The notes below the pieces were generated by a model. It was given only the letters and a program-made list of their open reading frames with translations. It was not told the origin of the DNA and did no database searches. A stretch of 64,000 bases of DNA from a phage. How positions within the stretch are numbered: the stretch's first letter is position 1; every line of letters begins with the position of its first letter. A program made the position numbers and the translations under genes. Of the stretch, positions 7,994-50,205 are shown one piece after another. The DNA lies in the sequence record PZ445440.1. One strand, given 5' to 3'.

Positions 7994-8019
7994 GTAATTT
8001 TCCTCATTATCATTAAACT

Positions 8020-17523: not shown

Positions 17524-17633
17524 ATTTACCCTTAATTAACTAAGCATTGATAATCATTAAACTATATTGCGAATAAAATTCTGGACCAAAACGAAAAATC
17601 ATATCATTTATAGTATCCATAATGTAATTCAAT

Positions 17634-18104
17634 TTAATCATGTTTCCACACCCCATCGGTATTTGACCAAAGTCGCTGATTATCTGATCCTCGCCACAGC
17701 TTTTTAGTCGGAAGATTTTTCTCATACTTCCCATCAATAATAACATCAACATATTTAAGCATTTCTAGTTGTTTAATATCTTCAAACTTATATCCTGTCC
17801 ACAACCAAATGCTTTTATTGGGATAAAGATTTTTTACTGTTTGAGCAATGCGATGAATAACATCTCGGTTATCAGGATAGAGAGGGTCACCTCCGGTTAT
17901 AGTTAATCCTTCTATATAATCATTATTCAAACATTCAATTAATTGTTCTAGTGTTTCACCGGTGAATGGAACACCATTTCTAGCATTCCATGTTGATTTA
18001 TTATAACACCCTTCACATTTATGCAAACAACCTGTAACGAAAAGAACGACCCTGCAACCAGGGCCATTCACAAAATCGCAAGGATAAAATCTATCATAAT
18101 TCAT
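17634..18104 (-). CDS. nrdG: anaerobic ribonucleotide reductase activating protein NrdG (radical SAM)
   Basis: CDFVNGPGCRVVLFVTGCLHKCEGCYN cysteine cluster. Confidence 0.9.
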   Translation of the reverse strand: MNYDRFYPCDFVNGPGCRVVLFVTGCLHKCEGCYNKSTWNARNGVPFTGETLEQLIECLNNDYIEGLTITGGDPLYPDNRDVIHRIAQTVKNLYPNKSIWLWTGYKFEDIKQLEMLKYVDVIIDGKYEKNLPTKKLWRGSDNQRLWSNTDGVWKHD

Positions 18105-35936: not shown

Positions 35937-36114
35937 ATTATTTCTCTTAAGGTTTGGGCCATTCCGTGGCACATGAATTGTCCATTTCTGTATTTACCCA
36001 TTACCGCACTTGGGCTCGACCTTATTACAGGTTGGCGGGAATCCCTCATAGAATCATGAGGTCCAGGTTGTTCCCATTTTATTTGAAGGTAAATAGGCCT
36101 AAGTATAGGCCTAT

Positions 36115-36693
36115 TTAATTACCACGGGCTGCATTAGCAACGGCGTAAGCGTACTGAACATTAGCGTCTTTAAACGTACCTTTAGAGGTATCTATTTCCG
36201 CCTTAAAGCCACCTTTAGCCATAACATCGGCAAATTCTTTACGGAAAGCCATTGCATCAAGACCTTTCCATGATGATTTATGCTTGGCAAATTCAAGACC
36301 GGCGTAGTTGACAGCCTTAGCTAATTTATTATCAATAACCCATTTACCTGCTTTAGGCACAAACTTCGGGCCTTTTTGTTTAGAGAACAGTTTTAAATTC
36401 CAGCGACGAAGGTCACTGTCGGCTTTAACAAAAGCTGCGTCTAAGTTACTAGCAACAACATCTTCAATATGAGCAAATTTAAGTCCGTCAACTTCAATAT
36501 TTAGATCGTTACGCCAGCGTAGTCCTTCCCAAGCGAAGGCTTTAAAATCAGAAGCTTTTGTGGCTAGATATCGTTCAAGTGGAGCAGTTTTAGGGTCAAA
36601 GCCGTTTCCGCCACGATAATTCCACTCGTCCTTATTAATGCCTTGAGCTTTTCCTGCAAAGGCCTCGGCGATAAATTCTTTATATGTTTTCAT
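36115..36693 (-). CDS. internal-protein-like capsid-targeted protein (CTS MKTYKEFIAEA)
   Basis: N-terminus matches T4 internal protein capsid targeting sequence. Confidence 0.65.
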   Translation of the reverse strand: MKTYKEFIAEAFAGKAQGINKDEWNYRGGNGFDPKTAPLERYLATKASDFKAFAWEGLRWRNDLNIEVDGLKFAHIEDVVASNLDAAFVKADSDLRRWNLKLFSKQKGPKFVPKAGKWVIDNKLAKAVNYAGLEFAKHKSSWKGLDAMAFRKEFADVMAKGGFKAEIDTSKGTFKDANVQYAYAVANAARGN

Positions 36694-36718
36694 TTTGTTC
36701 CTATTGATTTAATTTATG

Positions 36719-37033
36719 TTATTCTTTAGGGAAGTTTTTAGAGTATGCATCATAAAGTTTATTACCAATACGGCGGAAGACTTTAGCTGCAAAACGGTTT
36801 TCAGGGTTTTTAATCATGATTTGCATCATGTAAGTTCCTGCATCCGAAAGAGCTTCTTCGTAGTACCCATTAATTTCTTTAAGAGTCCTACGTTTACCGC
36901 CAGGACCATCAACAGTAATTTTCCATTTACCAGTAGAAGTGCGGCTCGGTGGTTCAACTTGTTCAATCCAAATATAACCACCTTCAACGCGTTGGTTGGC
37001 GGATTCTGCAATAAATTCTTTATACGTTTTCAT
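36719..37033 (-). CDS. internal-protein-like capsid-targeted protein (CTS MKTYKEFIAES)
   Basis: CTS N-terminus. Confidence 0.65.
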   Translation of the reverse strand: MKTYKEFIAESANQRVEGGYIWIEQVEPPSRTSTGKWKITVDGPGGKRRTLKEINGYYEEALSDAGTYMMQIMIKNPENRFAAKVFRRIGNKLYDAYSKNFPKE

Positions 37034-37096
37034 TTTTGTTTCCTTGTTTGTTTTGATAGAGTAATTATACCATATTAATACTTAAGCGTAAACAAT

Positions 37097-37357
37097 TTAA
37101 GCTTGACCGCCAGAAATAATTCCGAAGTTGTTAAAATCATGTCCAATATCGTCAACATCTACTTTAGGACTTGCTACAACATAAGCAATTTCACTACGTT
37201 TTGCATAGGTGTTGATTTCTTTACCATCGCCACCTAAAAAAGAATACCCATTACGTTTTAATGAGCCAAAGTCTTCGGCATCACCAACGAAAGCTTTAAC
37301 TTTAAATTTAGGACCTTTGGCAACTGCTTCAGCGATAAATTCTTGATACATTTTCAT
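37097..37357 (-). CDS. internal-protein-like capsid-targeted protein (CTS MKMYQEFIAEA)
   Basis: CTS at internal ATG with SD AAGGGAAAA; track start is upstream extension. Confidence 0.6.
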   Translation of the reverse strand: MKMYQEFIAEAVAKGPKFKVKAFVGDAEDFGSLKRNGYSFLGGDGKEINTYAKRSEIAYVVASPKVDVDDIGHDFNNFGIISGGQA

Positions 37358-37364
37358 TTTTCCC

Positions 37365-37778
37365 TTAGTAAATTGATTTACCATAGTATTTGTACCAAGT
37401 CGGACGTTGAGCAATTTTTTCATCTAAGCGTGCTTGACTTATCGCGATGGATGCTTCGGACGGGACGTAATTATTACGAAATTCTACAGGGATGTCGGAA
37501 ATATCCTGGACTGTCGTGTCCTTGATTTTGAAACCACGTTTCAAACATTCAGCGATTAGCTCGATTTGACGTAAACGTAAAAATTCGAGTTTGTCGTAAA
37601 AGAATGTTACGTGACCTGTGCCTAAGATAAATGTTGGAGAGATTTTAAAATCCTTTACACGTTTACCGTTTTGAACATGTTTACGGACTGCACCAAATAT
37701 GCGTGGTAATTCACGATACTCAGCCATAAGATGTTGGTCGGTCAGTTCAGAAACAAGTGTTAAATTGATACGGGTCAT
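37365..37778 (-). CDS. denV: endonuclease V (pyrimidine dimer DNA glycosylase) DenV
   Basis: [35 protein letters not shown]... matches T4 DenV. Confidence 0.95.
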
Positions 37779-37781
37779 AAT

Positions 37782-37835
37782 TTCCTCCAAGTAGTTGATG
37801 AATGTATAGTATCAAAACCCTTGGAGGAAGTAAAC
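37782..37835 (-). promoter_or_regulatory. early promoter GTTTAC/TACTAT; spacer arm TTCCTCCAAG complementary to downstream arm CTTGGAGGAA that contains denV SD
   Basis: read from sequence. Confidence 0.5.
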
Positions 37836-37836
37836 A

Positions 37837-38118
37837 CTATTTTTCTGAAGCGCCTGAAATATATTTTTCAAGACGTTGTTTCATCAACGAGCCGTTCTTA
37901 GCGATTTCTTCCGGTTTATCGCACATACGCAACAATGCTTCAAGCTTAGCGATATCGCTGGTACGTTCAAATTTGCGAGTATCTATCTTACTAGCAAGTT
38001 CAGAAATACGTGCTAGTAGACTTTCGGCTTCAACCAAAGCTGCACCTAGCTTAGTTGCAAATGTGTCAGTAGCTTCGTTAAGAATAGATTCTGATAAAAA
38101 TTCACTATATGTTTTCAT
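37837..38118 (-). CDS. internal-protein-like capsid-targeted protein ([14 protein letters not shown])
   Basis: CTS N-terminus; position denV-e as T4 ipII/ipIII. Confidence 0.6.
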
Positions 38119-38603
38119 ATATACGCTTTCCAAGTTCCTGTTTTAAATGTTGAGATTACGCGTTTCGCGCGATTAGGTGTCTGACGATACCATTTAGATT
38201 GGGCTAGATTTACTGCCGCTTCATCCCAACGTTTCTGTTGAAGCATACGAAGAGAATTAGTAAAACCAGCGACGCCTGCTACACCCATTTGGAAGACCAT
38301 ATTGACCAATGCACATCGACGAACCGCATCTAAAGAATCATATACCGGTTTAAGTTTAGCATTACCCAAGATTCCGCGAACGGCTTTATCAACGTCTTCA
38401 TTAAATAGCTTTTCAGCCTCATCAAGGGTAATTGTACCGTTGCATTTACGTCCGATCATTCTGTCAAGTTCAGCTTTAGCTACGGCTAAAGACGGGTTCT
38501 TTGTTACTAAATGGCCTATGCCAATCGTCCAAAAGCCTTCGGTGTCTTTGTATAAAGTCAGTCTAAGACCTTCGTCATTACGAAGCATTTCAAATATATT
38601 CAT
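38115..38603 (-). CDS. e: lysozyme (endolysin) e
   Basis: [35 protein letters not shown]... matches T4 lysozyme; catalytic E11, D20, T26 present. Confidence 0.97.
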
Positions 38604-38606
38604 AAT

Positions 38607-38628
38607 ACCTCCCACGTTTATAGGAGGT
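38607..38628 (-). promoter_or_regulatory. lysozyme leader hairpin (ACCTCC-TATAAACGT-GGGAGGT) sequestering the e SD; late-promoter-like TATAAA in loop
   Basis: read from sequence; same arrangement as described for T4 gene e. Confidence 0.6.
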
Positions 38629-38637
38629 ATTTATTAC

Positions 38638-39096
38638 TTATAGGAGGGTAGTGAGCACCTTATATAATGATTTACCCATTACATATTCCCATTGAGAAGG
38701 TTTAATTAAAGCGAATGCATCAAATTCAGGAATCTGTCGTCCGTCCGGGAATGTATGATAGGAATTACAAACACTGTTTCTGAATTGCTCGTGCTCTACA
38801 GGAATGGTATATTGGAACAGATGAATATTCTTATTGTCTGAGTAATGATGTTCGCCTAGGTCTTTCAGGAAGGCAGGGTCATATTGTGTAAACCCAGTTT
38901 CTTCTTCGCATTCACGAATAGCGGCTTCAATAGGAGATTCGCCGGGTTCGACACGACCTTTAGGAATATCCCACCGATGAGCTAATGCACCTTTAGGACG
39001 AGAACCAGTTACACGCCCCATGAATAATTCTTTATCTTCGGTAAGGAAAATAATACCGGCTGATAGTTCTTTCACTTTATTTTTCTTACTCATCAT
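38638..39096 (-). CDS. nudE: Nudix hydrolase NudE
   Basis: Nudix box GRVEPGESPIEAAIRECEEETGF. Confidence 0.9.
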   Translation of the reverse strand: MMSKKNKVKELSAGIIFLTEDKELFMGRVTGSRPKGALAHRWDIPKGRVEPGESPIEAAIRECEEETGFTQYDPAFLKDLGEHHYSDNKNIHLFQYTIPVEHEQFRNSVCNSYHTFPDGRQIPEFDAFALIKPSQWEYVMGKSLYKVLTTLL

Positions 39097-39337
39097 CTCG
39101 GTCCCATGATTTGGCCATTAATTCGGACATAAATTCTTCAATGCGCGTTTCTTTAGATGGACTTTCACTATTAGAGACCGCAAGTTTGTAATCTGCAATA
39201 GGACAAAACATATCAAGGTCCATATTAAGATCGTCTTTGATTTTTTCTTCTGACACATCTTTATCGTATGTGTACAGATAACTATCACATGATTCTGATT
39301 TAATGTAAATTGCTATACTCATCTCAAATTCCTGCAT
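39086..39337 (-). CDS. hypothetical protein
   Basis: track ORF. Confidence 0.5.
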   Translation of the reverse strand: MQEFEMSIAIYIKSESCDSYLYTYDKDVSEEKIKDDLNMDLDMFCPIADYKLAVSNSESPSKETRIEEFMSELMAKSWDRDDE

Positions 39338-39810
39338 TCGGTAATAAAACGTTCAACTTCATTATTCTTGGCCTTTATCTTGTCTTTACGTTCCTGTAAA
39401 CTACTTTTAACAAGATTAATAATGATGCCTACAGTACCTCCACCAATGATGCCACCAACAACACTTATGATACTAGATGCTAATAAGATAGCAATAATAT
39501 CAACAAAACCGAAAGAACTCACCTTAGTACTAAAAAACCACACTGACGGTACAAATATAATCCATCCTGTTATCCATTGGCACTTATTGAAAAACTTTTC
39601 AAGCTCAGCTTGAGTTGTTCGTATTACTTCATCGATAGGTTGATATCCATTAATGTATCTGTTCACGATAATACCTGCTGGCTGGTTGATTTTAAATTCT
39701 TGGCAAATATGTTTCACTAAGTAGGACGGACATCCTGTCCAATCTACTGAATAATACGAAATACCTTCGTTGCCATCGTCTATATTAGACCAATATGTTT
39801 TGTTAATCAT
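39319..39810 (-). CDS. membrane protein with C-terminal ERFITECR tail
   Basis: track ORF; two TM segments; shared C-terminal motif family. Confidence 0.55.
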   Translation of the reverse strand: MINKTYWSNIDDGNEGISYYSVDWTGCPSYLVKHICQEFKINQPAGIIVNRYINGYQPIDEVIRTTQAELEKFFNKCQWITGWIIFVPSVWFFSTKVSSFGFVDIIAILLASSIISVVGGIIGGGTVGIIINLVKSSLQERKDKIKAKNNEVERFITECRNLR

Positions 39811-40496
39811 TACCAGCCTTCCATAGGGAATTCCAGATAAACTTGGGCATTGACACGAATTTCATTGGTAATCTTTTTAACTCGGTCTGTATTACGAGAT
39901 ACACGTCCGAACCAACGCCATCCGTTACTAATTGCACGAGAACCAGTGTGCCATGTTTGCCAATCAAACTGAAGAAGAGTACGGTCTGGAGCTTCCCATT
40001 TCTCTAGTTCACCTTTTTCGATTTTTTCGAGGACTTCTTTGTGCCACTGGCGATAGATAAGTTCGCCATCAGGAATCTGACTGAACTCTGCAGTTCCTGT
40101 TGCAAAATGAGTAGGACACACATCAGAGTTAACAAGACCAAGAATATGTTCAGAATGGTAACGAGGGTTGTCATAGTCAGGTTGTCCTGCAGTAATAAAG
40201 TGTTGACCAACTGGAATATCCGGGCGTGGTACATCGTCATGGTGATAACCTGGGATAGCAGGGTACCAACCAGGCATCAGCATGTGGACTCGTGAATCAA
40301 ATACAACCTGGTCGGTGTTCCAATCATCCGGCAAGTTCATGATGAAGCTGCGAGTAATAGGACCGCCGTTATTATAAGCAAATTCTAAACTACAGTTAAA
40401 GAACATCGGTTCGTTCTTGATTTTATCATTAGAAATGCTACCGGCAAAACCACCTACTGCACGAGCTTGGCTATTAAACACTTTAGAACTATTCAT
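39810..40496 (-). CDS. hypothetical protein (228 aa)
   Basis: track ORF. Confidence 0.55.
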   Translation of the reverse strand: MNSSKVFNSQARAVGGFAGSISNDKIKNEPMFFNCSLEFAYNNGGPITRSFIMNLPDDWNTDQVVFDSRVHMLMPGWYPAIPGYHHDDVPRPDIPVGQHFITAGQPDYDNPRYHSEHILGLVNSDVCPTHFATGTAEFSQIPDGELIYRQWHKEVLEKIEKGELEKWEAPDRTLLQFDWQTWHTGSRAISNGWRWFGRVSRNTDRVKKITNEIRVNAQVYLEFPMEGW

Positions 40497-40497
40497 A

Positions 40498-40803
40498 TTA
40501 TTTTCCTCGACATTCTTTAATGAAATTTTCTAGATTGGTAGATTCAATAGCTTTTTTACGAGCTTCTGCGTGTTCTTCTTCGGACAATTTACGTTTATAA
40601 TTGACCCAGACATTATGGTCTAAACCGGTCGTGGCATATAATATCAAAGCTCCGACGAATAATAAAAACGGTGATAAAAATATACAACCAGGAACACCAT
40701 CCATACTGTAAGCCTTTTGTAATACTGCAACAGAAAGAGCTGCGTAAAAAAGCGATGCAAATATTGTAAAAAGACCGATTCGGTTGGTTTCGCCTAATTT
40801 CAT
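40498..40803 (-). CDS. membrane protein with C-terminal ENFIKECRGK tail
   Basis: track ORF. Confidence 0.55.
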   Translation of the reverse strand: MKLGETNRIGLFTIFASLFYAALSVAVLQKAYSMDGVPGCIFLSPFLLFVGALILYATTGLDHNVWVNYKRKLSEEEHAEARKKAIESTNLENFIKECRGK

Positions 40804-40823
40804 AATATTCTCCTCATGTTTTA

Positions 40824-40861
40824 ATAGGACTACTATAACATAGCCCTATAATTGTGTAAAC
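40824..40861 (-). promoter_or_regulatory. early promoter GTTTAC/TTATAGT with inverted repeat ATAGGACTA/TAGCCCTAT
   Basis: read from sequence. Confidence 0.5.
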
Positions 40862-40873
40862 AGTTTTGTGAAG

Positions 40874-41830
40874 TTATTTGAAAGGTTTTACCATATGGAA
40901 ATTTTGTTTGAAACGTTTGACGTAATCGTCGTGTCCTAAGCTTTGGTACATACTTACTACTTTGCTGTAGTTTTCCCAGGCATACTCACGGAACCAACCA
41001 GAGGTGATGCTTGTACAGACCTTTTCCAATGCCATCATGAAACTGGCTTCAGGGTTAATTTTAAAGTCATTAGGAATTTGAGAACGTTCTAATGCTAGTA
41101 CACATGATTCTTCGTATACACCGGCCAGTTTAATCATTTCTGGTAACGATTCGAACTTCTCGCGTGAGGTCATGACTTCAGAACCGTCTTTCATGTAAAA
41201 CGTATAAGCCGGACGGTCTGTTAGTGCAATGGCTTCATGAATAGTATCATGGTCATATGTATAGATGTCATCTTTAAAGAACGCACTTTTAGAAGTGTCA
41301 AGAACCGGGTGAGCATAGTTCAAAGTTTCTTTCTGGCGTTTCAGCATAATTTCAGTAAGTTCATCGTTCAGTGTAACACCTTTACCACGAAGATACTGAA
41401 TATGGTTCATAGTCTTTAAAAAGAATGGATTATTTTTCTTGAAACGGTGAGACATCTTAATTGCAAGACATATCTCAGGAGTTGCCCAGTAAAACCCGGT
41501 CAAACGGTCTTTAGTCAAATTTTTCTTGGCGTATTTTAAAAGGTCATAAGAAGACGTGAAATCTTCAGGAGTGAGTTCACCGACTAGTTCACGGACATTA
41601 GTGATTGCCGGAACAATATACGCTTCAAAATGAGTTTCGCGTCCATTATGGAAGCATTTGAAAACTTGGACATCAGGGTTATCTTGGTGGACATATACAC
41701 CCATCATTTGATTTTTGAATGCATTCCAAGAACATTGGTCCGCAATAAAGTCCCAATCACTATTTTTGATAGCGCTAGAATCAATAAGACCGTGATAGTG
41801 AAGTGCACGAGAACCAATAACTAACAACAT
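40874..41830 (-). CDS. hypothetical protein, possible nucleotidyltransferase fold (weak)
   Basis: N-terminal VIGSRALHYHG...SDWDF loosely fits GSx..Dx[DE] pattern; uncertain. Confidence 0.45.
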   Translation of the reverse strand: MLLVIGSRALHYHGLIDSSAIKNSDWDFIADQCSWNAFKNQMMGVYVHQDNPDVQVFKCFHNGRETHFEAYIVPAITNVRELVGELTPEDFTSSYDLLKYAKKNLTKDRLTGFYWATPEICLAIKMSHRFKKNNPFFLKTMNHIQYLRGKGVTLNDELTEIMLKRQKETLNYAHPVLDTSKSAFFKDDIYTYDHDTIHEAIALTDRPAYTFYMKDGSEVMTSREKFESLPEMIKLAGVYEESCVLALERSQIPNDFKINPEASFMMALEKVCTSITSGWFREYAWENYSKVVSMYQSLGHDDYVKRFKQNFHMVKPFK

Positions 41831-41858
41831 AATATTTTCCTCGGATTAATTCATTAAC

Positions 41859-42110
41859 TTAAATTTCACGACATGCGATATCATATTCATCCCAGAGGTC
41901 ATCATGTGAAGCCTCTACCAATGGAACGATTGTACCATTTATGTCTTCATTATAAGGGCAAATTGTACAGTGCGCATCTTCGAATCGGATGCCTTTGTGT
42001 TCAGATTTTTTATAACGCATATCGAATATCTTTGCAAACTTTTCACGAGTAATGGTTTTACCAACCACTTTGGTTCCGATACTTTCGTAATAAATCATTT
42101 TGTTCTCCAT
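41859..42110 (-). CDS. hypothetical protein
   Basis: track ORF. Confidence 0.5.
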   Translation of the reverse strand: MENKMIYYESIGTKVVGKTITREKFAKIFDMRYKKSEHKGIRFEDAHCTICPYNEDINGTIVPLVEASHDDLWDEYDIACREI

Positions 42111-42117
42111 TTGTTTT

Positions 42118-42156
42118 GATAGGACTACTATAACATAGCCCTATCTTGTTGTAAAC
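42118..42156 (-). promoter_or_regulatory. early promoter GTTTAC/TTATAGT with inverted repeat GATAGGACTA/TAGCCCTATC
   Basis: read from sequence. Confidence 0.5.
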
Positions 42157-42160
42157 TGTT

Positions 42161-42358
42161 TTAGCAAGAATAACTAGATGATACCCAGCCTTGAACAGTG
42201 ATACTATTGTGGGATAATGAGATCGCGTCCTGGAGATTCAGACCTGCGTTATCTTCAATCCATAATGTAACTTCTTCGCGTTCTTCTGTTGCAATTTGGA
42301 ACAGGTTTTCTAGAGCAGCTACTGCGGTACGTACAGCACAATCTAATTCACGAGACAT
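42161..42358 (-). CDS. small protein, paralogue family ending GWVSSSYSC
   Basis: track ORF; C-terminal motif shared with next two ORFs. Confidence 0.5.
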   Translation of the reverse strand: MSRELDCAVRTAVAALENLFQIATEEREEVTLWIEDNAGLNLQDAISLSHNSITVQGWVSSSYSC

Positions 42359-42367
42359 ATGGTTTCC

Positions 42368-42640
42368 TTAGCAAGTGTGAGAAGATGCAACCCAACCGCC
42401 ATCTTCAAGGCTCAGGTTGTAGTCGTATTGGTAAACGTCAGCCCATTCAGCATAGCCGTTTTTTGTACAACGTTCAAGATCGGCTTTAAGATGTCCGGGT
42501 GAATGATAGGTTCCACCCATACCATAAGCTGGATACAAGTCGAATGTTGTGTTTTGTTTATCAGCAATTTCTTTGGCAGCCTCAATAGCTGCATAGATTT
42601 TTGCTACAGCTTCGGCCAGTTCGGTTTGTTCTTTAGACAT
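42368..42640 (-). CDS. small protein, paralogue family ending GGWVASSHTC
   Basis: track ORF; YGMGGTYHSPG and C-terminus shared with 42650..42955. Confidence 0.55.
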   Translation of the reverse strand: MSKEQTELAEAVAKIYAAIEAAKEIADKQNTTFDLYPAYGMGGTYHSPGHLKADLERCTKNGYAEWADVYQYDYNLSLEDGGWVASSHTC

Positions 42641-42649
42641 AATGATTCC

Positions 42650-42955
42650 TTAGCACAACGCAGAAGACGAAACCCAAGCACCTTCAGTAATAACGTAACC
42701 ATTACCTTCACGCTTAACATCACCACCATTATTTTCAATTTCATCTTTCATCCACTGGGATACGATTTCACCCTTAGGATAATAAGTACGTCCGCTACCA
42801 TAATCACCTACAGAAAATGATACGGCATATTGGTCTGCGATCTTTGTTGCTTCTTCTTCGATACGTTCAGCTTGATTCAGAAGTTTATAAATTGCATCTG
42901 AAGCGGATTTGGCATCATTAAACTCTGGTACTTTAATTTCAATAATCTTACTCAT
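42650..42955 (-). CDS. small protein, paralogue family ending GAWVSSSALC
   Basis: track ORF; YGSGRTYYPKG. Confidence 0.55.
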   Translation of the reverse strand: MSKIIEIKVPEFNDAKSASDAIYKLLNQAERIEEEATKIADQYAVSFSVGDYGSGRTYYPKGEIVSQWMKDEIENNGGDVKREGNGYVITEGAWVSSSALC

Positions 42956-43311
42956 TTTCTACATTCCTTAATAAAGTTTTCGATTGTTTCATTTTCACGT
43001 TTAGCTAGAAGTTCATTATAACTAATCATTTGAGAAGCGTAAACCTTTTTATTTTTCTTGTTATGGTTTATAAAATCGTAGTAAAAATAGACTACAGTAC
43101 AAAATGATGCGATGGATGCAAAGGCTTGGGTATACCGTAAGTCCTGCCATTGGTCTGTGAATCCACCGGTATTCCCTATAAATCCTAACACAACTCCGTC
43201 AATAAGAAATCCAACTAATCCAAAGGCAAATCCCATGCCAATACTCATAATAAAAATTAAAATATTCTCACCAAGAGAAGGCCATACGGTTAAGAGTTGA
43301 GGCTTTTGCAT
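42952..43311 (-). CDS. membrane protein with C-terminal ENFIKECRK tail
   Basis: track ORF. Confidence 0.55.
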   Translation of the reverse strand: MQKPQLLTVWPSLGENILIFIMSIGMGFAFGLVGFLIDGVVLGFIGNTGGFTDQWQDLRYTQAFASIASFCTVVYFYYDFINHNKKNKKVYASQMISYNELLAKRENETIENFIKECRK

Positions 43312-43664
43312 CTTATTTCCTTAACGAATTCCATAGCTTCTTCATATTCATACTTTTTAACAGCTTCATCATACTGAGCTTGGGCTTTTGCGCACTGAAC
43401 TTTCCACTCGCGAACTCGAGCTCTGTGATGACGGCCTTGGTGCCAATATCCTGCCCAATTAATAGGCATTAATAAAAACGGTACAATAAGTGGTGCGACG
43501 AACATTAATGAAAACGCTGCATCAGACGATATAACTTTATTGGAATCTAAAATAGCTCCTATAATCATAAAGATTAAAAATGCTAAAGCTAAAATAGGGC
43601 CAAATAGTACTTCGTTTGGGATTAATTTACGTTTGTATTCGTATGCCCAGGGCTTAATTGGCAT
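43290..43664 (-). CDS. membrane protein (C-terminus EFVKEIRCKSLNS)
   Basis: track ORF trimmed to internal ATG. Confidence 0.5.
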   Translation of the reverse strand: MPIKPWAYEYKRKLIPNEVLFGPILALAFLIFMIIGAILDSNKVISSDAAFSLMFVAPLIVPFLLMPINWAGYWHQGRHHRARVREWKVQCAKAQAQYDEAVKKYEYEEAMEFVKEIRCKSLNS

Positions 43665-44277
43665 GTACAGGGTTGGCTTTGACATATTCTCTACATTCCA
43701 TAATAAATTGCTCAAGGATTAAATTGTTAGTGAAATTAGGACTAACAACCATAGTTTCATAAAGCGCATCAATAGCACTTAAAGCATCAACTCTTTTAAG
43801 CAAAGGCTTGCCTTCATACATAGTTTCAGAATCGACGATTAACGTAAAGTAATATTTTTTATTATCGACTAGAACTTCTGTGTCGATATAAAACATATTA
43901 GACCTCAGAAGCTTATCTCTAAAACCATAATAATCTTCTGAACGTTCGCTGATATATTCCCATTCAGTGTTTAAACAACAAACAGACCACGTAGGAGCAA
44001 CGAAATCAGTGAATCTAATATCATGGTCTGCAACTAGTTTAGCAATAGCTCCGATATCATGAATCATAATACCTGGGGCTAATAAAGATTTTCTGCTATG
44101 GCTAGCCGTTTTCTCAGTGGTCTCATAAGAAGCCGACCAGTACCATTTACGTCCGGTTGCAACATATCGTAATGAATCAACTAAAGACGTAGGTGGATTT
44201 ACCTTATCTCGGAACTCTTCGAACATTGAGTCAATATCATTATTTTGGTTTCGCATGTTAACTCCTTTATCATCCAA
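43654..44277 (-). CDS. hypothetical protein (207 aa) with EQFIMECREY near C-terminus
   Basis: track ORF. Confidence 0.55.
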   Translation of the reverse strand: MDDKGVNMRNQNNDIDSMFEEFRDKVNPPTSLVDSLRYVATGRKWYWSASYETTEKTASHSRKSLLAPGIMIHDIGAIAKLVADHDIRFTDFVAPTWSVCCLNTEWEYISERSEDYYGFRDKLLRSNMFYIDTEVLVDNKKYYFTLIVDSETMYEGKPLLKRVDALSAIDALYETMVVSPNFTNNLILEQFIMECREYVKANPVHAN

Positions 44278-44305
44278 AAGGAGGACCGGAGTCCTCCGTA
44301 TTATT

Positions 44306-44899
44306 TTATTTCAAAGAGTTAATATATTCTTGTACATCAGCAGAAGTGGTTTCGACACCGGCTGGAGTGCCATTGAACGTTTCAACACGAGTCAGAGTGT
44401 CTTCGATATCAACCTTAGTCAGTGCAGCGATTTCAATTACATCATCGGCCGTAGAGATACCAAGGGCATTGGCTGCTCGAGTTTCACGAATGTATTCGAG
44501 TTTGATTGCCAGGTTCTGACGAGCATCATCAAGTTCAACCACCTTACGAGCAATTTCAATTCGCATAGCGGCATACCCGTCAGCTTTTGTATTAAGTTGT
44601 TCTGCAGTTCGACGATACAGAAGACCAAGCTTAGCATGCATGGTAACATCTTGTCCTTCAGCCAAGAGCTTACGAATTTCACGTTCCTTAGAAGCGGCTT
44701 GCTTATTCTTTTCAATAACAAGTTCGCGAATACGTTTTTCTTCATTAATAGATTTAACAGAAGCCGTTTTTAGTTCTTTGATTTGGGTAATCAACTTATC
44801 TGCAGCTGCGTTATACTGTTCTTCGACAGTCAGATTTTTAGCCATAGCAGTACCCAGTTTAGTGCGGATGAATTCAACAAGTTTCTTCAGTGTGTTCAT
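44306..44899 (-). CDS. hypothetical coiled-coil protein
   Basis: track ORF trimmed to MNTLKKLV. Confidence 0.55.
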
Positions 44900-44969
44900 A
44901 TTATTACCTTTCAATTGGTGGTTTATTATCCAATGAGAGCATTATACTCTGCTCTCAAGAGTTTGTAAA

Positions 44970-45197
44970 TTATTTTTTAATCAAATTGACATAAAACTTG
45001 GCGTCTTCCGGGTGCATGCCTTCACAGTATTCTTCAACCATGAACTTCTTAACAGCTTCATAAGGACCACTCAGATTAAGCTCAGTTGTCCAGAACTTGG
45101 AATCTTGGACTGAATCGATACGAACTTCAGGGTGACGGTTGCGAATAACTTCTTCGGTATATTCATAATCAACGACATCAATACTAACTTTAGCCAT
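44970..45197 (-). CDS. hypothetical protein
   Basis: track ORF. Confidence 0.5.
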   Translation of the reverse strand: MAKVSIDVVDYEYTEEVIRNRHPEVRIDSVQDSKFWTTELNLSGPYEAVKKFMVEEYCEGMHPEDAKFYVNLIKK

Positions 45198-45243
45198 TTT
45201 GTTTTCCTCTTGATTTGATGTGATTACTATAACATAAACTTAC

Positions 45244-45408
45244 TTAGATGTAAATTATTTCAACGTCACCTTTAGCGGCTTTATAACCTTCAGCCCAAGA
45301 TACAACAGAGTTTTTATCTGAGGATTCAAATTCAGGCATTGGACTTTCACCAATATTCACACAGTATGTTTCTTCATTTTCATCGAACCAAATAATTAAA
45401 GTAGTCAT
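45244..45408 (-). CDS. hypothetical small acidic protein (54 aa)
   Basis: hand translation MTTLIIWFDENEETYCVNIGESPMPEFESSDKNLVVSWAEGYKAAKGDVEIIYI. Confidence 0.3.
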   Translation of the reverse strand: MTTLIIWFDENEETYCVNIGESPMPEFESSDKNSVVSWAEGYKAAKGDVEIIYI

Positions 45409-45437
45409 TTTGTTTACTCCTCTGTAGTTAATAAGTC

Positions 45438-45466
45438 TATAGTATCACCATCCTTGGTGCTTGTAC
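45438..45466 (-). promoter_or_regulatory. early-type promoter (TGTACA, TACTAT) with spacer palindrome CACCAAGGATGGTG
   Basis: read from sequence; related to 23770-23799 cassette. Confidence 0.4.
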
Positions 45467-45476
45467 ATCATTATTT

Positions 45477-45782
45477 TTAATTTTTCCAACTTAACAACTT
45501 GTAGTGTCCTTCATTCATACGTGGTTTATCCCAAGAAATACTAATATATGATTCACCACCAATAGAAGTCGCCGGGTTTTTCTCTACCGTAAGACCTTCA
45601 CTTTCCAGCCATTCAATAGTATTTGCGCATAAATCAGAAGAACACCTCATCGGGAACCGGCAAGATTTTTCACCTTTATCTGCAGTGTTATACATCTTTT
45701 CTAAAATGCGCTTTTGCACATTTTTAAAAATAGTTTCAGCAGATTCTTCAGATTTTTTATTCAGTTCAGTATAAAGATTCAT
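45477..45782 (-). CDS. hypothetical protein
   Basis: track ORF. Confidence 0.5.
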   Translation of the reverse strand: MNLYTELNKKSEESAETIFKNVQKRILEKMYNTADKGEKSCRFPMRCSSDLCANTIEWLESEGLTVEKNPATSIGGESYISISWDKPRMNEGHYKLLSWKN

Positions 45783-45839
45783 AATATTCTTCTCATTAAT
45801 AGGGCTCGTAATATCTCAATCATAAGCCCATGTACGCGT

Positions 45840-46115
45840 TTATTTCATATTATCGAAATATTCTTCAGCGATTTCGTCATTATCATGGTAAACTTTAGAA
45901 GACAGTTTAACATAACCTTCTGCCGTGAACATATTAATCACAACCTTTATAGTATACCACTGTCCGTCTTCATTACCCATTACTGCGTAAGTTTCAAACA
46001 TCGGATGCTCAGGTCCAATAACTTTAATATCATTCACCGTACGACTGAAATCTTCTGGAACGCATTTCATAAAGAAGTTGAACAGTTCACCGTAATTATC
46101 CATTTCATTCTCCAA
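45840..46115 (-). CDS. hypothetical acidic protein
   Basis: track ORF. Confidence 0.5.
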   Translation of the reverse strand: MENEMDNYGELFNFFMKCVPEDFSRTVNDIKVIGPEHPMFETYAVMGNEDGQWYTIKVVINMFTAEGYVKLSSKVYHDNDEIAEEYFDNMK

Positions 46116-46143
46116 GTTTTTTCTGTATCGGTAGTTGATAGTT

Positions 46144-46175
46144 GTATAGTACCACGGAAGAACAGGGATGTAAAC
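46144..46175 (-). promoter_or_regulatory. early promoter GTTTAC-N17-ACTATAC
   Basis: read from sequence. Confidence 0.4.
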
Positions 46176-46246
46176 AGTTTTGTGAAAAAAAAATTTTAAA
46201 AAAGTTTTGTGGAATTCTAGGGCAGGGAGAGGAAAGGCCTAGATAC

Positions 46247-46274
46247 CAAAAAGCCCTATCTAAATGATAGGGCT
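46247..46274 (-). terminator. rho-independent terminator (AGCCCTATC-ATTTA-GATAGGGCT + UUUUU)
   Basis: read from sequence. Confidence 0.6.
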
Positions 46275-46281
46275 TAAAAAA

Positions 46282-46845
46282 TTATTTACCTAGTTTAGTT
46301 ATTATAGCTTCGGCAGCAGCTTTTAGCTTAGATGCAGTGTTAATACGATTTTTAATTTCAGTATACGCATCGCCAAGAACATCAAGGCTATCAGAATAAA
46401 CACTTACACTATTGCGTTCGCTATTTGAAATAGAACCTTTAGTTTTACGATCAAAATCAGTGTACACGTCTTGAAGATCACGGGCTGCCTTCTTTGCATC
46501 ATCCAATGCATCAAGAGCTTTATTCAAAGCATTGACATATTTTTTAGTGTCAAACATATTCTTAGAAATTTTAACAGGTGCACGTTCAGGAGTAGCTAAG
46601 GCGGATTTAGGAACCTGCGCGCCAGATGCCAGTTTCTTAGAAATTTTGAAAAACGCTTTATTGAAACTATTTTCTTGACTCATCGTAAAAGAACTAGTAT
46701 CGATGTTATACATTTCAATAGCTTTGGCTTTCCACTTAAGAAAATCGCTACGGTCTTTTGGGTCTAAGTGGAAGAATACTTTAGTAAGATCTGCTTCAGA
46801 TGGTAATTTTGCTGCTTCGGTTAAAAATTCGGCGTAGGTTTTCAT
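46282..46845 (-). CDS. internal-protein-like capsid-targeted protein (CTS MKTYAEFLTEA)
   Basis: CTS N-terminus. Confidence 0.6.
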   Translation of the reverse strand: MKTYAEFLTEAAKLPSEADLTKVFFHLDPKDRSDFLKWKAKAIEMYNIDTSSFTMSQENSFNKAFFKISKKLASGAQVPKSALATPERAPVKISKNMFDTKKYVNALNKALDALDDAKKAARDLQDVYTDFDRKTKGSISNSERNSVSVYSDSLDVLGDAYTEIKNRINTASKLKAAAEAIITKLGK

Positions 46846-46931
46846 TTAAAATCCTTGAAATAATTTATCGGTTGGTTATTAATTATTTATCACATTGTTA
46901 TATGTAACAGCATTCTCTGAGCGATTCAAAC

Positions 46932-46959
46932 TAAAAAGCCCCAACAGAAAGGTTTGGGC
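46932..46959 (-). terminator. rho-independent terminator (hairpin + UUUUU)
   Basis: read from sequence. Confidence 0.55.
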
Positions 46960-46967
46960 TAAGAATG

Positions 46968-47432
46968 TTATTTGATTTGTTTAGCAGACCAAATGCGGTC
47001 TTTAATAAGTTTTTGGATATCTTCAACATACTCAAGGCTATGAGCGTGAGGATTATCTTTGAAACTATGTGCTCGTGCCAGTTTCTGGCCTTCTGTTTTG
47101 ATTACTAAAAGCTCTTTAAGAATTGCTTCATACTTAGAAATAATTCCTTTGGCGATATTTTTTTCTTGAGCTGTTTTATGGTCCGCTTTTGGCACAGGTG
47201 CTTTACCTGTAGCTTTCTGGAACAATTCACCTGATGCAGCTAGGCTTTTAAAAACTCGGCTAACAGTATTAGCATTAGTAAAACCTTCGGCTTTAAAATC
47301 TCTAATAAAACGGAAACGTTCTTCATCGGAGGCGTCTTTGTAAGAATATTTACCTGCTTGAATTGCTGCAATCGCAGCGGCTTTTACATCTGAACTAGAT
47401 TGTTCAGTCAAAAATTCAGCGTATGATTTCAT
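46968..47432 (-). CDS. internal-protein-like capsid-targeted protein (CTS MKSYAEFLTEQ)
   Basis: CTS N-terminus. Confidence 0.6.
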   Translation of the reverse strand: MKSYAEFLTEQSSSDVKAAAIAAIQAGKYSYKDASDEERFRFIRDFKAEGFTNANTVSRVFKSLAASGELFQKATGKAPVPKADHKTAQEKNIAKGIISKYEAILKELLVIKTEGQKLARAHSFKDNPHAHSLEYVEDIQKLIKDRIWSAKQIK

Positions 47433-47474
47433 GTTGCTTTTCCTAAGTTAATTAACTTATCTATTTATTATGCC

Positions 47475-47501
47475 AAAAAGCCCCAACCGTAAGGAAGGGG
47501 C
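47475..47501 (-). terminator. rho-independent terminator (GCCCC...GGGGC hairpin + UUUUU) ending the tRNA/small-RNA unit
   Basis: read from sequence. Confidence 0.6.
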
Positions 47502-47504
47502 TAA

Positions 47505-47813
47505 GCCTTGCGGCAACCTTGTCGGGGTTCCACCTGCTAAGGCAAGTGTTTGTACGAAACGCCGGGATTTGAACCCGGTTATCAAGCAGTTGACGCTACT
47601 CAATATTTTTAAAAGGCCATATCTCGACCATATCCGAACGTTCCGTCAAAAACGCTACTCGGCTTACGGCAAAGATATTTCCTCGAATCGATAATTCTGT
47701 GCGCCGTTTCTGCTGTGATGTAAGGGGATATTAACAAATCATAAAGATTTATTAAGACCAGTCCTTACTCAGGGAACATCAGTCCGACGACTTGCCGGTA
47801 GCGACCCGGCTTC
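47505..47813 (-). ncRNA. non-coding structured region downstream of the tRNAs; possible stable small RNA(s) analogous to T4 species 1/2 RNAs; contains a tRNA-like T-arm (47561-47580)
   Basis: no ORF; CCGGGTTCAAATCCCGG T-arm-like element and several stems; between tRNAs and terminator. Confidence 0.3.
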
Positions 47814-48158
47814 TTATTTTGACATATCATCAATTTGTTCTCTACGTCTACGCCATAGATTAATTACTTCATCAACACATTCGGCGTTTGATATATGACG
47901 GCAATAATATAATGATTCGCGTTTCTGGAACCGATGTTGCAATGGGATTTCGTTTAAAAGGTCTTTACGGTCAAAGTATTCAAAACTAGTTAACCCGGAA
48001 CGGTTTTTAATGAACTTCCAATGTCCAAATTCATTTTGAACATAGATGTAATCGGCATGCTGATACAGCGAATTAATCAATCGATGAGAAATAACTGTAT
48101 CATATTCGTTAAAATAAAACGTTAAATCATGAACTACTAGATAAATATTGCCTTTCAT
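47814..48158 (-). CDS. hypothetical protein (115 aa)
   Basis: track ORF trimmed to ATG with SD GAGGAAAA; track start would overlap tRNA-Arg. Confidence 0.55.
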   Translation of the reverse strand: MKGNIYLVVHDLTFYFNEYDTVISHRLINSLYQHADYIYVQNEFGHWKFIKNRSGLTSFEYFDRKDLLNEIPLQHRFQKRESLYYCRHISNAECVDEVINLWRRRREQIDDMSK

Positions 48159-48176
48159 ATTTTCCTCACTTAAAGT

Positions 48177-48253
<77 letters not shown>

Positions 48254-48259
48254 AATATA

Positions 48260-48333
48260 TGACCCAGACCAGATTCGAACTGGTAACCTTTCCCTTATGA
48301 GGGGACTGCTGCTAACCATTGAGCTACAGGGCC
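48260..48333 (-). tRNA. tRNA with CAU anticodon (Met or lysidine-modified Ile)
   Basis: T-arm ACCAG-TTCGAAT-CTGGT, anticodon loop CTCATAA; acceptor has one mismatch, D-arm pairing weak. Confidence 0.55.
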
Positions 48334-48412
48334 TAAATAACTTTCTATTATGAAAGGCACTTTAGAGCACCTTTGGTAATAGAGGGTATGAATTAATAAT
48401 AACACATAATTC

Positions 48413-48928
48413 TTAAAGCAAATCAATCATTTTAACAGTTGGCAAAACGATTTCTTCTTCAATATAAGCAAATTCAACACATTCAACTACACGCAAGAAA
48501 TCATAATCATAATATTCAGAAGCATGGCCAAGAATACCAACGAGACCTTCTGATACTAAATATCCATTCTCACGGAACAGGTCGAATACACGCGATTCGT
48601 CTTCTTCAGATTTATTACCAAGGTCGACTTCAATATCAAAGACCTTTTTAATGAATTCTGGATAAAGCTGGTCTGAGAACAGTCCTTCAACCAAGTATTC
48701 ATAAATTAAAAGCGAGCAATCACTGAATGGTGTATTACCACAGTAACGTTCAGCTTTAGTGCTAGAATGACTGCTCTTAAATTTCTTCAAGAGATATTTA
48801 AACTGTTGGAGCTCATGCTCTTCCACTTCAAACAATGTTTTGGTTTTATAGTTGTCACCATCATTTTCATAGGTAGTGACATCAATTACGTAGCCCTTAG
48901 GAATTGTACTGCCTAAACAAATATTCAT
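48413..48928 (-). CDS. hypothetical protein
   Basis: track ORF. Confidence 0.55.
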   Translation of the reverse strand: MNICLGSTIPKGYVIDVTTYENDGDNYKTKTLFEVEEHELQQFKYLLKKFKSSHSSTKAERYCGNTPFSDCSLLIYEYLVEGLFSDQLYPEFIKKVFDIEVDLGNKSEEDESRVFDLFRENGYLVSEGLVGILGHASEYYDYDFLRVVECVEFAYIEEEIVLPTVKMIDLL

Positions 48929-48932
48929 TTAC

Positions 48933-49223
48933 TCACCGTACCATATTAATGTAATTATATTCAATGCAACGTAATTTCAAAGGATTCTTGAAAATATCAT
49001 ATTCAAGAGGGCCTTTTTCTGTTTCAATAAAGAAATCAAAGTTAACTGTGTTAAATTTATCGTCTTCACAGAGTAATTTAACTTGCGAAGATGAACGGTC
49101 GATGTAAACCTTTTCAACTTCAAAATTAGTTAGAATACCGTAGTCATTAACTAGTGCTTTAGCTGCACGTTGATCGCTTTCATATCCATTCTCGACAGAT
49201 TTTACTTTAGCATAAAGAATCAT
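48933..49223 (-). CDS. hypothetical protein
   Basis: track ORF. Confidence 0.5.
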   Translation of the reverse strand: MILYAKVKSVENGYESDQRAAKALVNDYGILTNFEVEKVYIDRSSSQVKLLCEDDKFNTVNFDFFIETEKGPLEYDIFKNPLKLRCIEYNYINMVR

Positions 49224-49600
49224 GAGTGTTCCACCACTTCAAAGGTATGAGCATCAACAATATGATACCAGTCAAAATTTTCTTCCGCGTTTTTATAAAT
49301 TTCGCGAAGAGCTTCAACAGTTTTTCCTGTAGCAACAAGATCATCAATACCACCAAGAGGATAACAGTCATAACCAGCAAACAGAAGGAAATTAATAGTT
49401 TCTGTAGGGGCCGGATGCAGTGTACCATTGTCATCGACTACTTCAAAGAACATATAACCAGGCGATTTAGATTTAATCCAAGCCCATGCTTGAGCTGCTG
49501 AATCAAATGGTCTGCGTATCAAACGACAATCAGGGTCTTTAGAAGGATTTGCTTCAAAATCCGCGTATACGTGATATTTCATTTTACTCACCTTTTGCAA
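49220..49600 (-). CDS. hypothetical protein
   Basis: track ORF. Confidence 0.55.
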   Translation of the reverse strand: MQKVSKMKYHVYADFEANPSKDPDCRLIRRPFDSAAQAWAWIKSKSPGYMFFEVVDDNGTLHPAPTETINFLLFAGYDCYPLGGIDDLVATGKTVEALREIYKNAEENFDWYHIVDAHTFEVVEHS

Positions 49601-49790
49601 TTTTATCCATAACGATAGCGATTAAGCCGATTAGAAATGCTACTACCAATGAGATAGAGTTTTCAGTTGTTGTCAGTAGTCCGCAAATGAATCCTACAAA
49701 CATCGAAAAACTAAAAGCCATTGAAGCAATTACTACAGCAACATTACGAATCAGTTCAGCGCGTTTCATTTTATTTCTCCATTTACTCAT
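49584..49790 (-). CDS. small membrane protein
   Basis: track ORF. Confidence 0.5.
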   Translation of the reverse strand: MSKWRNKMKRAELIRNVAVVIASMAFSFSMFVGFICGLLTTTENSISLVVAFLIGLIAIVMDKIAKGE

Positions 49791-49798
49791 TTTGTTCT

Positions 49799-49837
49799 GA
49801 TAGGACTACTATAACATAGTCCTATCAGCATGTAAAC
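49799..49837 (-). promoter_or_regulatory. early promoter GTTTAC/TTATAGT with perfect inverted repeat GATAGGACTA/TAGTCCTATC
   Basis: read from sequence. Confidence 0.5.
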
Positions 49838-49840
49838 TAC

Positions 49841-50128
49841 TTACAGAAGAGTTTTTGCAATAATTTTAAGCTGAGCTACAGAAATATGCTTAGCTTTAAA
49901 CAGTGCAGTCTCTTCAGCGGGAGAGATAACAATAGTAGCGCCATCTTTCTTAGCGGACCACCCGTCTCCTAAGTAAACAGTACCTTTTACTTCTTCGCCG
50001 TCAACCAGACTAATCATTGGTTTACCCTCACGTCCTTTATTTGCTTTAATAACTTCGGAAGTAAGGGTTGCTTCGGTCAGAGTAGAAACGTTAGCAACAG
50101 GTGATATAAATTCTTTATAGGTTTTCAT
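49841..50128 (-). CDS. internal protein I-like capsid-targeted protein (CTS MKTYKEFISP), 95 aa
   Basis: CTS N-terminus; position between tRNAs and 57B as T4 ipI; same length as T4 IPI precursor (from memory). Confidence 0.6.
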   Translation of the reverse strand: MKTYKEFISPVANVSTLTEATLTSEVIKANKGREGKPMISLVDGEEVKGTVYLGDGWSAKKDGATIVISPAEETALFKAKHISVAQLKIIAKTLL

Positions 50129-50156
50129 TTTATTTCCTTGAGGTTGTTTATTTGAT

Positions 50157-50192
50157 AGGATGATAGTATCACACCATCATCCTTATGTAAAC
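50157..50192 (-). promoter_or_regulatory. early promoter GTTTAC/TACTAT with inverted repeat AGGATGAT/ATCATCCT
   Basis: read from sequence. Confidence 0.45.
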
Positions 50193-50205
50193 TGTTTTGT
50201 GAAAA

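Follow-up and report, generated by a model that had tools for sequence, protein, structure and literature searches.

Seven genes with T4-type capsid-targeting sequences in a Mosigvirus: candidate injected anti-restriction proteins, exchange of cassettes at the coding start and a possible third internal-protein locus

Here we have analysed a stretch of phage DNA of 64,000 nucleotides (sequence record PZ445440.1, referred to as the window) and, within it, a set of genes that may code for internal proteins (IPs) of the T4 type. Positions 36000-50200 match Escherichia phage ChristianSchoenbein (Bas46, MZ501056.1) with 100% identity; this is a T4-like coliphage of the BASEL collection that belongs to the RB69-like genus Mosigvirus (Tevenvirinae). 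Seven minus-strand open reading frames (ORFs), named ipA to ipG, begin with a T4-type capsid-targeting sequence (CTS). We consider it probable that these are the ip genes of this phage, whose products would be packaged, processed, injected and directed against type IV restriction, and which would turn over by exchange of cassettes. This reading draws on the CTS of all seven, their cleavage motifs, two orthologies, three family memberships and the presence of the prohead protease and the scaffold in the same genome. That diverse CTS-tagged IPs act as specific injected anti-restriction factors is the established, mainstream view; what is new here is the recognition of five unlabelled putative ip genes, the probable correction of one start codon, evidence for exchange at the ATG and CTS, and a third locus, bounded by hairpins, with two widespread CTS families.

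RESULTS AND DISCUSSION

Seven genes begin with a capsid-targeting sequence

A six-frame scan of the 64 kb for the pattern M[KR].[YF].[ED][FYW] returned exactly seven matches, which are the starts of ipA to ipG (Table 1), and all seven have M1, K2, Y4, E6 and F7. We also used a position-specific scoring matrix (PSSM) trained solely on CTSs from outside the window, namely those of T4 IPI, IPII and IPIII and of the RB69 and PTK cassettes. The seven starts scored 17.0-36.9 bits, while the next best among 1085 candidate starts reached 10.1 bits and the background lay at -15.5 +/- 6.4; a chance origin of the seven matches is excluded. The original prediction, made from the letters of the window, had placed seven tagged ORFs at these positions, and this is borne out. 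Its consensus ending in Glu10 applies to six of them and fails for ipG, which has Pro10 (..FISP..), like T4 IPI (MKTFKEFTST), and the size range it gave, 85 to 190 amino acids (aa), is in fact 86-192 aa. The parts downstream of the tag had been called unrelated, and at the sequence level they are, with no pair of mature parts matching at E<0.1 in BLASTP. The longest ORFs for the genes at 37097 (ipC) and 37837 (ipD) begin upstream, at 37423 and 38133, so that the CTS methionine is internal to both. In the Bas46 record only ipA and ipG carry an internal-protein label; with the other five, the count of internal proteins in this annotation would rise from two to seven.

The T4 CTS uses residues 4 and 7 for targeting, and residues 8 and 10 for processing (PMC9026906). 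Y4 and F7 are present in 7/7 of our proteins, and [IL]8 and E10 in 6/7. Read from the sequence, the (L/I)xE processing motif is IAE, LSE or LTE at residues 8-10 in six proteins and LTE at residues 17-19 in ipG. In a set of 25 distinct 30-nt CTS coding sequences taken from ten phages, synonymous variation was observed at Thr3, Tyr4, Glu6, Ile/Leu8 and Glu10 (four codons for Thr3, three for Ile8, and both codons for Tyr4, Glu6, Leu8 and Glu10). Because a given conserved residue is written with different synonymous codons, the constraint lies on the peptide and not on the DNA alone. The same genome codes for a gp21-type prohead protease (bas46_0008, Peptidase_S77, 2.8e-107) and a T4-type scaffold (bas46_0009, T4_CASP, 1.5e-89), and gp67 is also present.

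Every gene of the region lies on the minus strand, in the order known from T4: vs.8, denV, e, nudE, e.2-e.8, tRNAs, ipI, 57B, 57A and gene 1. The ip genes occupy three variable loci in this order, vs.8/denV/e (ipA-ipD), e.8/tRNA (ipE and ipF) and the site beside 57B (ipG). The relatives compared over the region were RB69, PTK, CCU7, moha, ST2, phiC120, T4, ECML-134 and PP01.

ipA and ipG are orthologues of T4 IPIII and IPI

The ipA product is 93% identical in aa to T4 IPIII over 178 aligned residues of the mature part (BLASTP, E 4e-125) and 91% identical over the full length, it matches phrog_5341 ('internal virion protein') over residues 1-192/192 (E 3.8e-117), and GenBank labels it an internal head protein. 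The ipG product shares 94% identity with T4 IPI across the mature part aligned by BLASTP. It is the only one of the seven to match Pfam IPI_T4 (PF11634; 1.3e-50, residues 20-95, profile positions 1-76/76), and it matches PDB 2JUB over the same residues 20-95 (5.8e-42). Both matches begin at residue 20, which fits a mature start at this residue, behind the LTE at 17-19, where T4 IPI has ITE. The profile and structure searches of the mature domains that the original prediction had proposed were thus informative for ipG; for ipA to ipF, sequence searches of Pfam, NCBIfam and PDB gave weak sub-threshold matches and nothing significant.

The T4 proteins Ip1, Ip2 and Ip3 (IPI, IPII and IPIII) are injected, and each of them inhibits a distinct GmrSD-family type IV restriction enzyme (PMC12373910). 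IPIII is required for infecting ECOR17, and a version lacking the CTS is active if provided inside the cell (PMC9391042), and IPI of RB69 protects against GmrSD (PMC6024577). By orthology, the products of ipA and ipG are very likely GmrSD inhibitors. Bas46 also resembles T4 in the functional CTS residues, the (L/I)xE motif, the small size of the proteins and the neighbourhoods vs.8/denV/e and 57B. The two phages differ in that T4 has three ip genes and Bas46 seven, with no orthologue of IPII in Bas46; in that ipII and ipIII lie between denV and e in T4, whereas in Bas46 the interval vs.8-denV holds three ip genes and the interval denV-e a fourth; and in that the third locus, where Bas46 carries ipE and ipF, is empty in T4. 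They differ also in the DNA itself, with glucosylated cytosine in T4 and arabinosylated cytosine reported for DNA of phages of the Bas46 type.

ipB, ipC and ipD belong to named internal-protein families

The ipB product shows 72% identity with 'Ip10 [Shigella phage SP18]' and 96% with the PP01 protein annotated as 'ip10: Ip10 internal head protein', although it is a 'hypothetical protein' in the Bas46 record and belongs to phrog_3966, whose function annotation is unknown. The ipC product matches phrog_2667 ('internal head protein', E 9.4e-21), and its family is labelled internal head protein in the records of phiC120, SP18 and LF82-9; that of ipD matches phrog_3499 ('internal head protein', E 2.1e-46), with the same label on its family in the records of G4498, JoYop, ACG-C40 and moha. 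By these matches, the three genes belong to families that are already named internal proteins in other records. In GenBank, the gene corresponding to ipC (bas46_0218) starts at 37423 (MKKLLNV...) and overlaps the 3' end of denV by ~59 nt, while its RB69 orthologue, RB69ORF125c, is annotated from the CTS methionine; the true start of ipC is probably 37357 instead of 37423. The ATG of ipD and the stop codon of e, the endolysin gene, overlap (ATGA).

Some homologues in the RB69 record look odd. ORF124c (7734-8006), the Ip10 homologue, has a different and shorter C-terminus (90 aa), and ORF127c (8809-9090), the ipD homologue, has a degenerate tag, MKTYMNFYQN. The ipE homologue of RB69 (17315-17877) is split by a frameshift into ORF149c and ORF148c. 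These features may be real decay or sequencing errors.

ipE and ipF lie outside the two known loci

Published work confines the IP genes to two loci and describes them as absent elsewhere (PMC2839356), and the wording 'two Ip loci' is also used in PMC12373910. When the seven genes were placed on this scheme, ipA-ipD and ipG fell inside the two known loci (denV/e and 57B), and ipE and ipF outside, between e.8 and the rnaC/tRNA region. The T4 counterpart of window positions 46233-47469, which hold both genes, is a segment of 76 nt between e.8 and the rnaC/rnaD-like region. The family of ipE is found in 165 phage records and that of ipF in 512, and among the matches listed every one is a 'hypothetical protein'; in the phiC120 RefSeq record, four CTS genes are labelled internal proteins and its own copies of ipE and ipF are left hypothetical. 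The third locus appears to have gone unrecognised in the annotations and papers that we checked, and Comeau et al. 2007 may list the two families.

The CTSs of ipE and ipF score 23.9 and 17.0 bits. Homologues of ipF retain the CTS (MKSYAQFLNE.., MKTYNEFLNE..), and with a dN/dS of 0.10 against the ECML-134 copy the gene is under purifying selection. Three hairpins of one repeat family bound the two genes (Table 1), and the indel junctions of this locus coincide with these hairpins and not with the CTS. T4, which lacks both genes, shows junctions at 46232|47470; RB69, which lacks ipF, at 46945|47475; and PTK and moha, which lack ipE, share one junction at 46930. Beside the hairpin at 46248-46278, homology breaks at 46231-46235 with T4, RB69, CCU7, phiC120 and ECML-134.

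We tentatively suggest that ipE and ipF form a third IP locus made of hairpin-bounded cassettes, against the two-loci view, and that ipE may code for an injected effector against a defence that does not depend on DNA modification; we put this forward as a possibility somewhat short of even chances. A contrary explanation takes the N-terminal motif of these two genes as a relic of recombination or translation initiation, and their products as ordinary early proteins of the cytoplasm that stay out of the capsid. The position of both genes outside the two loci given for IP genes (PMC2839356), the indel junctions at hairpins rather than at the CTS and the lack of an internal-protein label among the annotations listed are in line with it. 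Yet both proteins retain all four functional positions (Y4, F7, L8 and E10), their PSSM scores (17-24 bits) greatly exceed the background, the ten CTS residues alone are sufficient to package foreign proteins in T4 (PMC9026906, PMC3012670), and the motif is kept, with synonymous codon changes, in ipF homologues that are only 72-77% identical, which argues for selection on the peptide. We therefore regard a mere relic as highly doubtful.

Both ipE and ipF match phrog_2280, whose function annotation is unknown. A paralogy of the two, as this common match might imply, was ruled out at the sequence level: after trimming of the CTS, BLASTP gave nothing at E<=100 and hhalign a probability of 0.4%. 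A remote structural homology may exist despite this. Homologue searches with ipE, ipF and ipB returned shallow families of near-identical members only, and ipE is a near-orphan: when the complete set of 1.84 billion representatives was scanned with HMMER, a single distant relative turned up, at 30% identity.

Next to this locus, positions 47470-47819 are 91% identical to the T4 segment with the small stable RNAs rnaC and rnaD and are unannotated in Bas46. ORFs called over this stretch (e.g. 47457-47603) are probably spurious, and an Rfam search of 46000-48500 returned two tRNAs only, leaving the rnaC/rnaD-like stretch unmatched. PP01_137 (564 nt), considered as an unannotated homologue of ipE, was rejected, since on translation it proved to be an unrelated ORF called across the rnaC/rnaD-like stretch.

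Cassettes are probably exchanged at the coding start

Nine of the compared genomes hold ten CTS families, in differing combinations and orders. Between vs.8 and denV, the order is IPIII - Ip10 - ipC in Bas46, fam7 - Ip10 - ipC in RB69, PTK and ST2, fam7 - IPIII - ipC in phiC120, IPIII - ipC in moha and IPII-like - ipC in CCU7. Every upstream homology junction at this locus lies <=3 nt from a CTS. The junctions fall at 36668-36670 with RB69, PTK and ST2, at 37004 with CCU7 and at 36696|37005 with moha and phiC120; in the latter pair, 32 nt of the relative align with both Bas46 segments, as would be expected if ipA and ipB had crossed over unequally at their CTSs.

An alignment of leaders, CTSs and bodies showed the same bodies behind different leaders and the same leaders before different bodies. 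The IPIII body was seen with three different leaders, the fam7 body with two and the IPII body likewise with two. Conversely, the leaders of the ipA, ipB and ipG positions each precede two to three bodies: IPIII or fam7 at the ipA position; Ip10, IPIII (moha, phiC120) or the IPII-like gene (CCU7) at the ipB position, where the leader carries the early promoter; and IPI or, in RB69, the extra cassette ORF156c at the ipG position. This extra cassette is flanked by a duplication of 55 nt of CTS and leader. Leader gives way to body at the ATG and within the initial ~8-23 nt of the CTS.

We propose that two modes of exchange operate. At the vs.8/denV/e and ipI loci, one ORF body would replace another behind the leader proper to that position, by a crossover in the ATG and the first bases of the CTS, whereas at the e.8/tRNA locus whole hairpin-bounded cassettes would be gained or lost. 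The original prediction had suggested that the shared 5' ends could be recombination sites, and the junctions agree with this, with hairpins taking that place at the third locus. They represent perhaps four independent events and not eight, which is good support and not statistical proof. A point on the other side is that the BLAST alignments extend through the shared CTS, so the crossover is resolved only to the ATG, ~8-23 nt and a similar ribosome-binding stretch. The idea of the leader as a recombination site is itself old: as summarised in PMC2839356 and PMC3012670, Repoila et al. 1994 tied IP polymorphism to conserved promoter/stem-loop elements and the leader. The evidence at the ATG and CTS at the level of sequence is new here; it backs the proposal that the leader peptide doubles as a recombination site, and the third locus points to a second, hairpin-based route.

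Several ip genes stand out from their surroundings in nt identity. With T4, the value is 90% for IPIII vs 63-78% for vs.8 and denV, and 83% for IPI vs 65-75% for 57B, 57A and gene 1. With the Tequatrovirus ECML-134, ipE is 96.6% identical, vs 63-80% for e.5, e.6 and tRNA.2; e.8 reaches 92% and the adjacent ipF 74.5%. For the most part, then, the ip cassettes look more recently exchanged between genera than the genes around them.

Comparable modules have been described. The polymorphic IP cassettes of T-even phages (Repoila et al. 1994; Comeau et al. 2007; ip4-ip10, with >30 IP variants known by 2007 according to PMC2839356) likewise have unrelated mature domains behind a conserved leader peptide, hypervariable loci and promoter/stem-loop elements, and ipB is a member of their Ip10 family; they differ in being published at two loci, whereas ipE and ipF occupy another, third site, with terminator hairpins at its bounds. 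The PeSL cassettes (Arbiol et al. 2010) are also small accessory ORFs with repeated promoter/stem-loop elements at their indel junctions. In contrast to these, the junctions at vs.8/denV and ipI fall at the coding start (ATG/CTS) and not only at regulatory repeats.

Proposed function of the seven proteins

The mechanism that we propose follows the one known from T4. The N-terminal CTS of ~10 residues would steer the precursor into the gp22 scaffolding core of the prohead, with Tyr4 and Phe7 as the determinants. The gp21 prohead protease would cut behind the Glu of (L/I)xE, at residue 10 in six proteins and at residue 19 in IPI. The mature, mostly basic proteins would remain with the packaged DNA and enter the cell with it, and there they would neutralise first-line modification-dependent (type IV) restriction enzymes, which would otherwise cut DNA with sugar-modified cytosine. 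Packaging, cleavage and injection are taken here from the work on T4, and a role of ipB to ipF as anti-restriction factors is proposed purely by analogy. The original prediction had named all seven as candidate injected anti-defence proteins, and this gains support from the orthology of ipA and ipG to the proven IPIII and IPI and from the membership of ipB-ipD in named internal-protein families. A close parallel, drawn from its description, is Bas37_0260, a protein of a BASEL Tequatrovirus (HIDEN-SEQ preprint 2025) that is CTS-tagged, encoded at an IP locus and without similarity to IPI-III, and that inhibits a type IV enzyme, McrBC (bioRxiv 10.1101/2025.11.20.689424); it differs from the products of ipB-ipF in that its target is known.

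Several points weigh against this reading or bring it no help. The proteins ip4-10, by name including ip10, the family of ipB, did not reproducibly inhibit any of eight active GmrSD systems (PMC12373910 supplement), so that for most families an anti-type-IV function is putative. The predicted mature forms of ipC, near neutral, and of ipD are not strongly basic. The AlphaFold2 model of ipB (3-sequence alignment, pLDDT 47) is too poor to inform on function, and so is that of ipE (5-sequence alignment, pLDDT 57), which is all-helical at low confidence. No perfect T4 late promoter (TATAAATA) was found near any ip gene, and the one-mismatch matches upstream of ipB, ipC, ipE and ipF are uninformative, so that expression at the time of prohead assembly is an assumption. 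Finally, our literature search, which included the names of the RB69 ORFs, found no virion proteomics or N-terminal data for Bas46 or its close relatives.

Could the proteins be packaged and yet have no specific target in the defences of the host, serving as generic DNA-associated basic filler, as counter-ions or as accessories of the scaffold? This would apply especially to ipB-ipF. The predicted mature forms of ipA, ipB, ipE, ipF and ipG (5/7) are basic, with pIs of 9.0-9.6, and in T4 ~1000 IP molecules are embedded in the DNA (PMC3012670); the negative result with ip4-10 also agrees with such a role. On the other hand, the three T4 IPs and the Bas37 CTS protein all have specific restriction enzymes as targets, the fast turnover of cassettes and their exchange between genera resemble the behaviour of arms-race genes, and a filler needs no ten unrelated folds. 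A purely structural role has, in our opinion, a small chance of being correct.

A further possibility is that some of the seven are injected effectors against something other than type IV restriction, either another defence system or a host process of the first minute of infection. Mosigviruses, including Bas46, are reported to have arabinosylated rather than glucosylated modified cytosine and are restricted by GmrSD-family systems such as TgvAB. The 96.6% nt identity of ipE between Tequatrovirus and Mosigvirus, that is, between genera with glucosylated hydroxymethylcytosine and arabinosylated cytosine, means that its target need not depend on the modification, and the product of this nearly unchanged gene may act on a defence that is not modification-dependent. 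Besides, the ipE and ipF products are larger, two-part and predicted to be helical, with no similarity to IPI-III, and their genes lie outside the classical IP loci. Against this, all CTS proteins whose targets are known so far inhibit type IV enzymes; moreover, IPI is also common to both genera, and GmrSD cuts DNA with either type of modification. We consider such other targets rather unlikely, and we favour type IV restriction enzymes as the targets of the set.

Injected internal proteins are the first response of a phage to the defences of its host, and those with known targets all block type IV restriction enzymes, each with high specificity. Because of this specificity, the ip repertoire helps to set the host range, and this is relevant to the composition of phage therapy cocktails. 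ipE and ipF add two widespread, unannotated candidate effectors.

Other features of the region

Sigma-70-like early promoters that belong to a six-copy repeat family precede ipB and ipG, and as a further copy abuts the 3' end of ipG, this gene is bracketed by direct repeats 355 nt apart (Table 1).

Table 1. The seven tagged genes and the repeat elements associated with them (window positions)
Feature	Position	Strand	Length	N-terminus, propeptide or motif	Predicted mature form	Remarks
ipA	36115-36693	-	192 aa	N-terminus/propeptide MKTYKEFIAE	182 aa, pI 9.6	IPIII orthologue
ipB	36719-37033	-	104 aa	propeptide MKTYKEFIAE	94 aa, pI 9.6	Ip10 family
ipC	37097-37357	-	86 aa	propeptide MKMYQEFIAE	76 aa, pI 6.8	
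ipD	37837-38118	-	93 aa	two (L/I)xE sites, residues 10 and 15	pI 8.1	between denV and e
ipE	46282-46845	-	187 aa	propeptide MKTYAEFLTE	177 aa, pI 9.5	putative third locus
ipF	46968-47432	-	154 aa	propeptide MKSYAEFLTE	144 aa, pI 9.6	putative third locus
ipG	49841-50128	-	95 aa	N-terminus MKTYKEFISP, propeptide MKTYKEFISPVANVSTLTE	IPI*, 76 aa	IPI orthologue
Early-promoter repeat upstream of ipB	37052-37099	-		GTTTAC..TG.TATAAT		repeat family D2; promoter-like site 37092-37064
Second early-promoter copy	49796-49843	-				repeat family D2; abuts ipG 3' end
Early-promoter repeat upstream of ipG	50151-50198	-				repeat family D2; promoter-like site 50191-50163
Terminator-like hairpin 3' of ipE	46248-46278	-				terminator scan and repeat family D6; cassette boundary
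Hairpin between ipF and ipE	46933-46963	-				repeat family D6; cassette boundary
Hairpin 5' of ipF	47475-47505	-				repeat family D6; 84% identical to 46933 copy; cassette boundary

The six copies of the promoter family (~48-66 nt, intergenic) lie at 37052-37099, 40820-40867, 42115-42162, 45214-45261, 49796-49843 and 50151-50198. On the coding strand they read GTTTAC, ~17 nt, TATAGT/TATAAT, with an internal inverted repeat, and the family matches several intergenic sites of RB69. It resembles the early-promoter/stem-loop elements of T4 that have been proposed to serve in modular shuffling.

The tRNA at 48260-48333 is called tRNA-Ile (ATA) in the Bas46 record, and the corresponding gene of RB69, PTK and moha is called tRNA-Met (CAU); such a clash of labels is the usual ambiguity of tRNAs with a CAU anticodon, which may be lysidine-modified. 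Three small ORFs in tandem (42161-42358, 42368-42640 and 42650-42955; 65, 90 and 101 aa) have in common the C-terminal motif G-W-V-(S/A)-S-S-x-x-C and resemble a local family of paralogues, in the region of RB69ORF136c-139c. Another motif, F-(I/V)-x-E-(C/I)-R, occurs at or near the C-terminus of five neighbouring ORFs (39319-39810, 40498-40803, 42952-43311, 43290-43715 and 43654-44277) in the variants ..FITECR.., ..FIKECR.., ..FVKEIR.. and ..FIMECR.., and several of the five are annotated as predicted membrane proteins (e.2-e.5 region). It lies mostly at or near the junction with the next gene, and could be either a protein motif or a conserved sequence for translational coupling.

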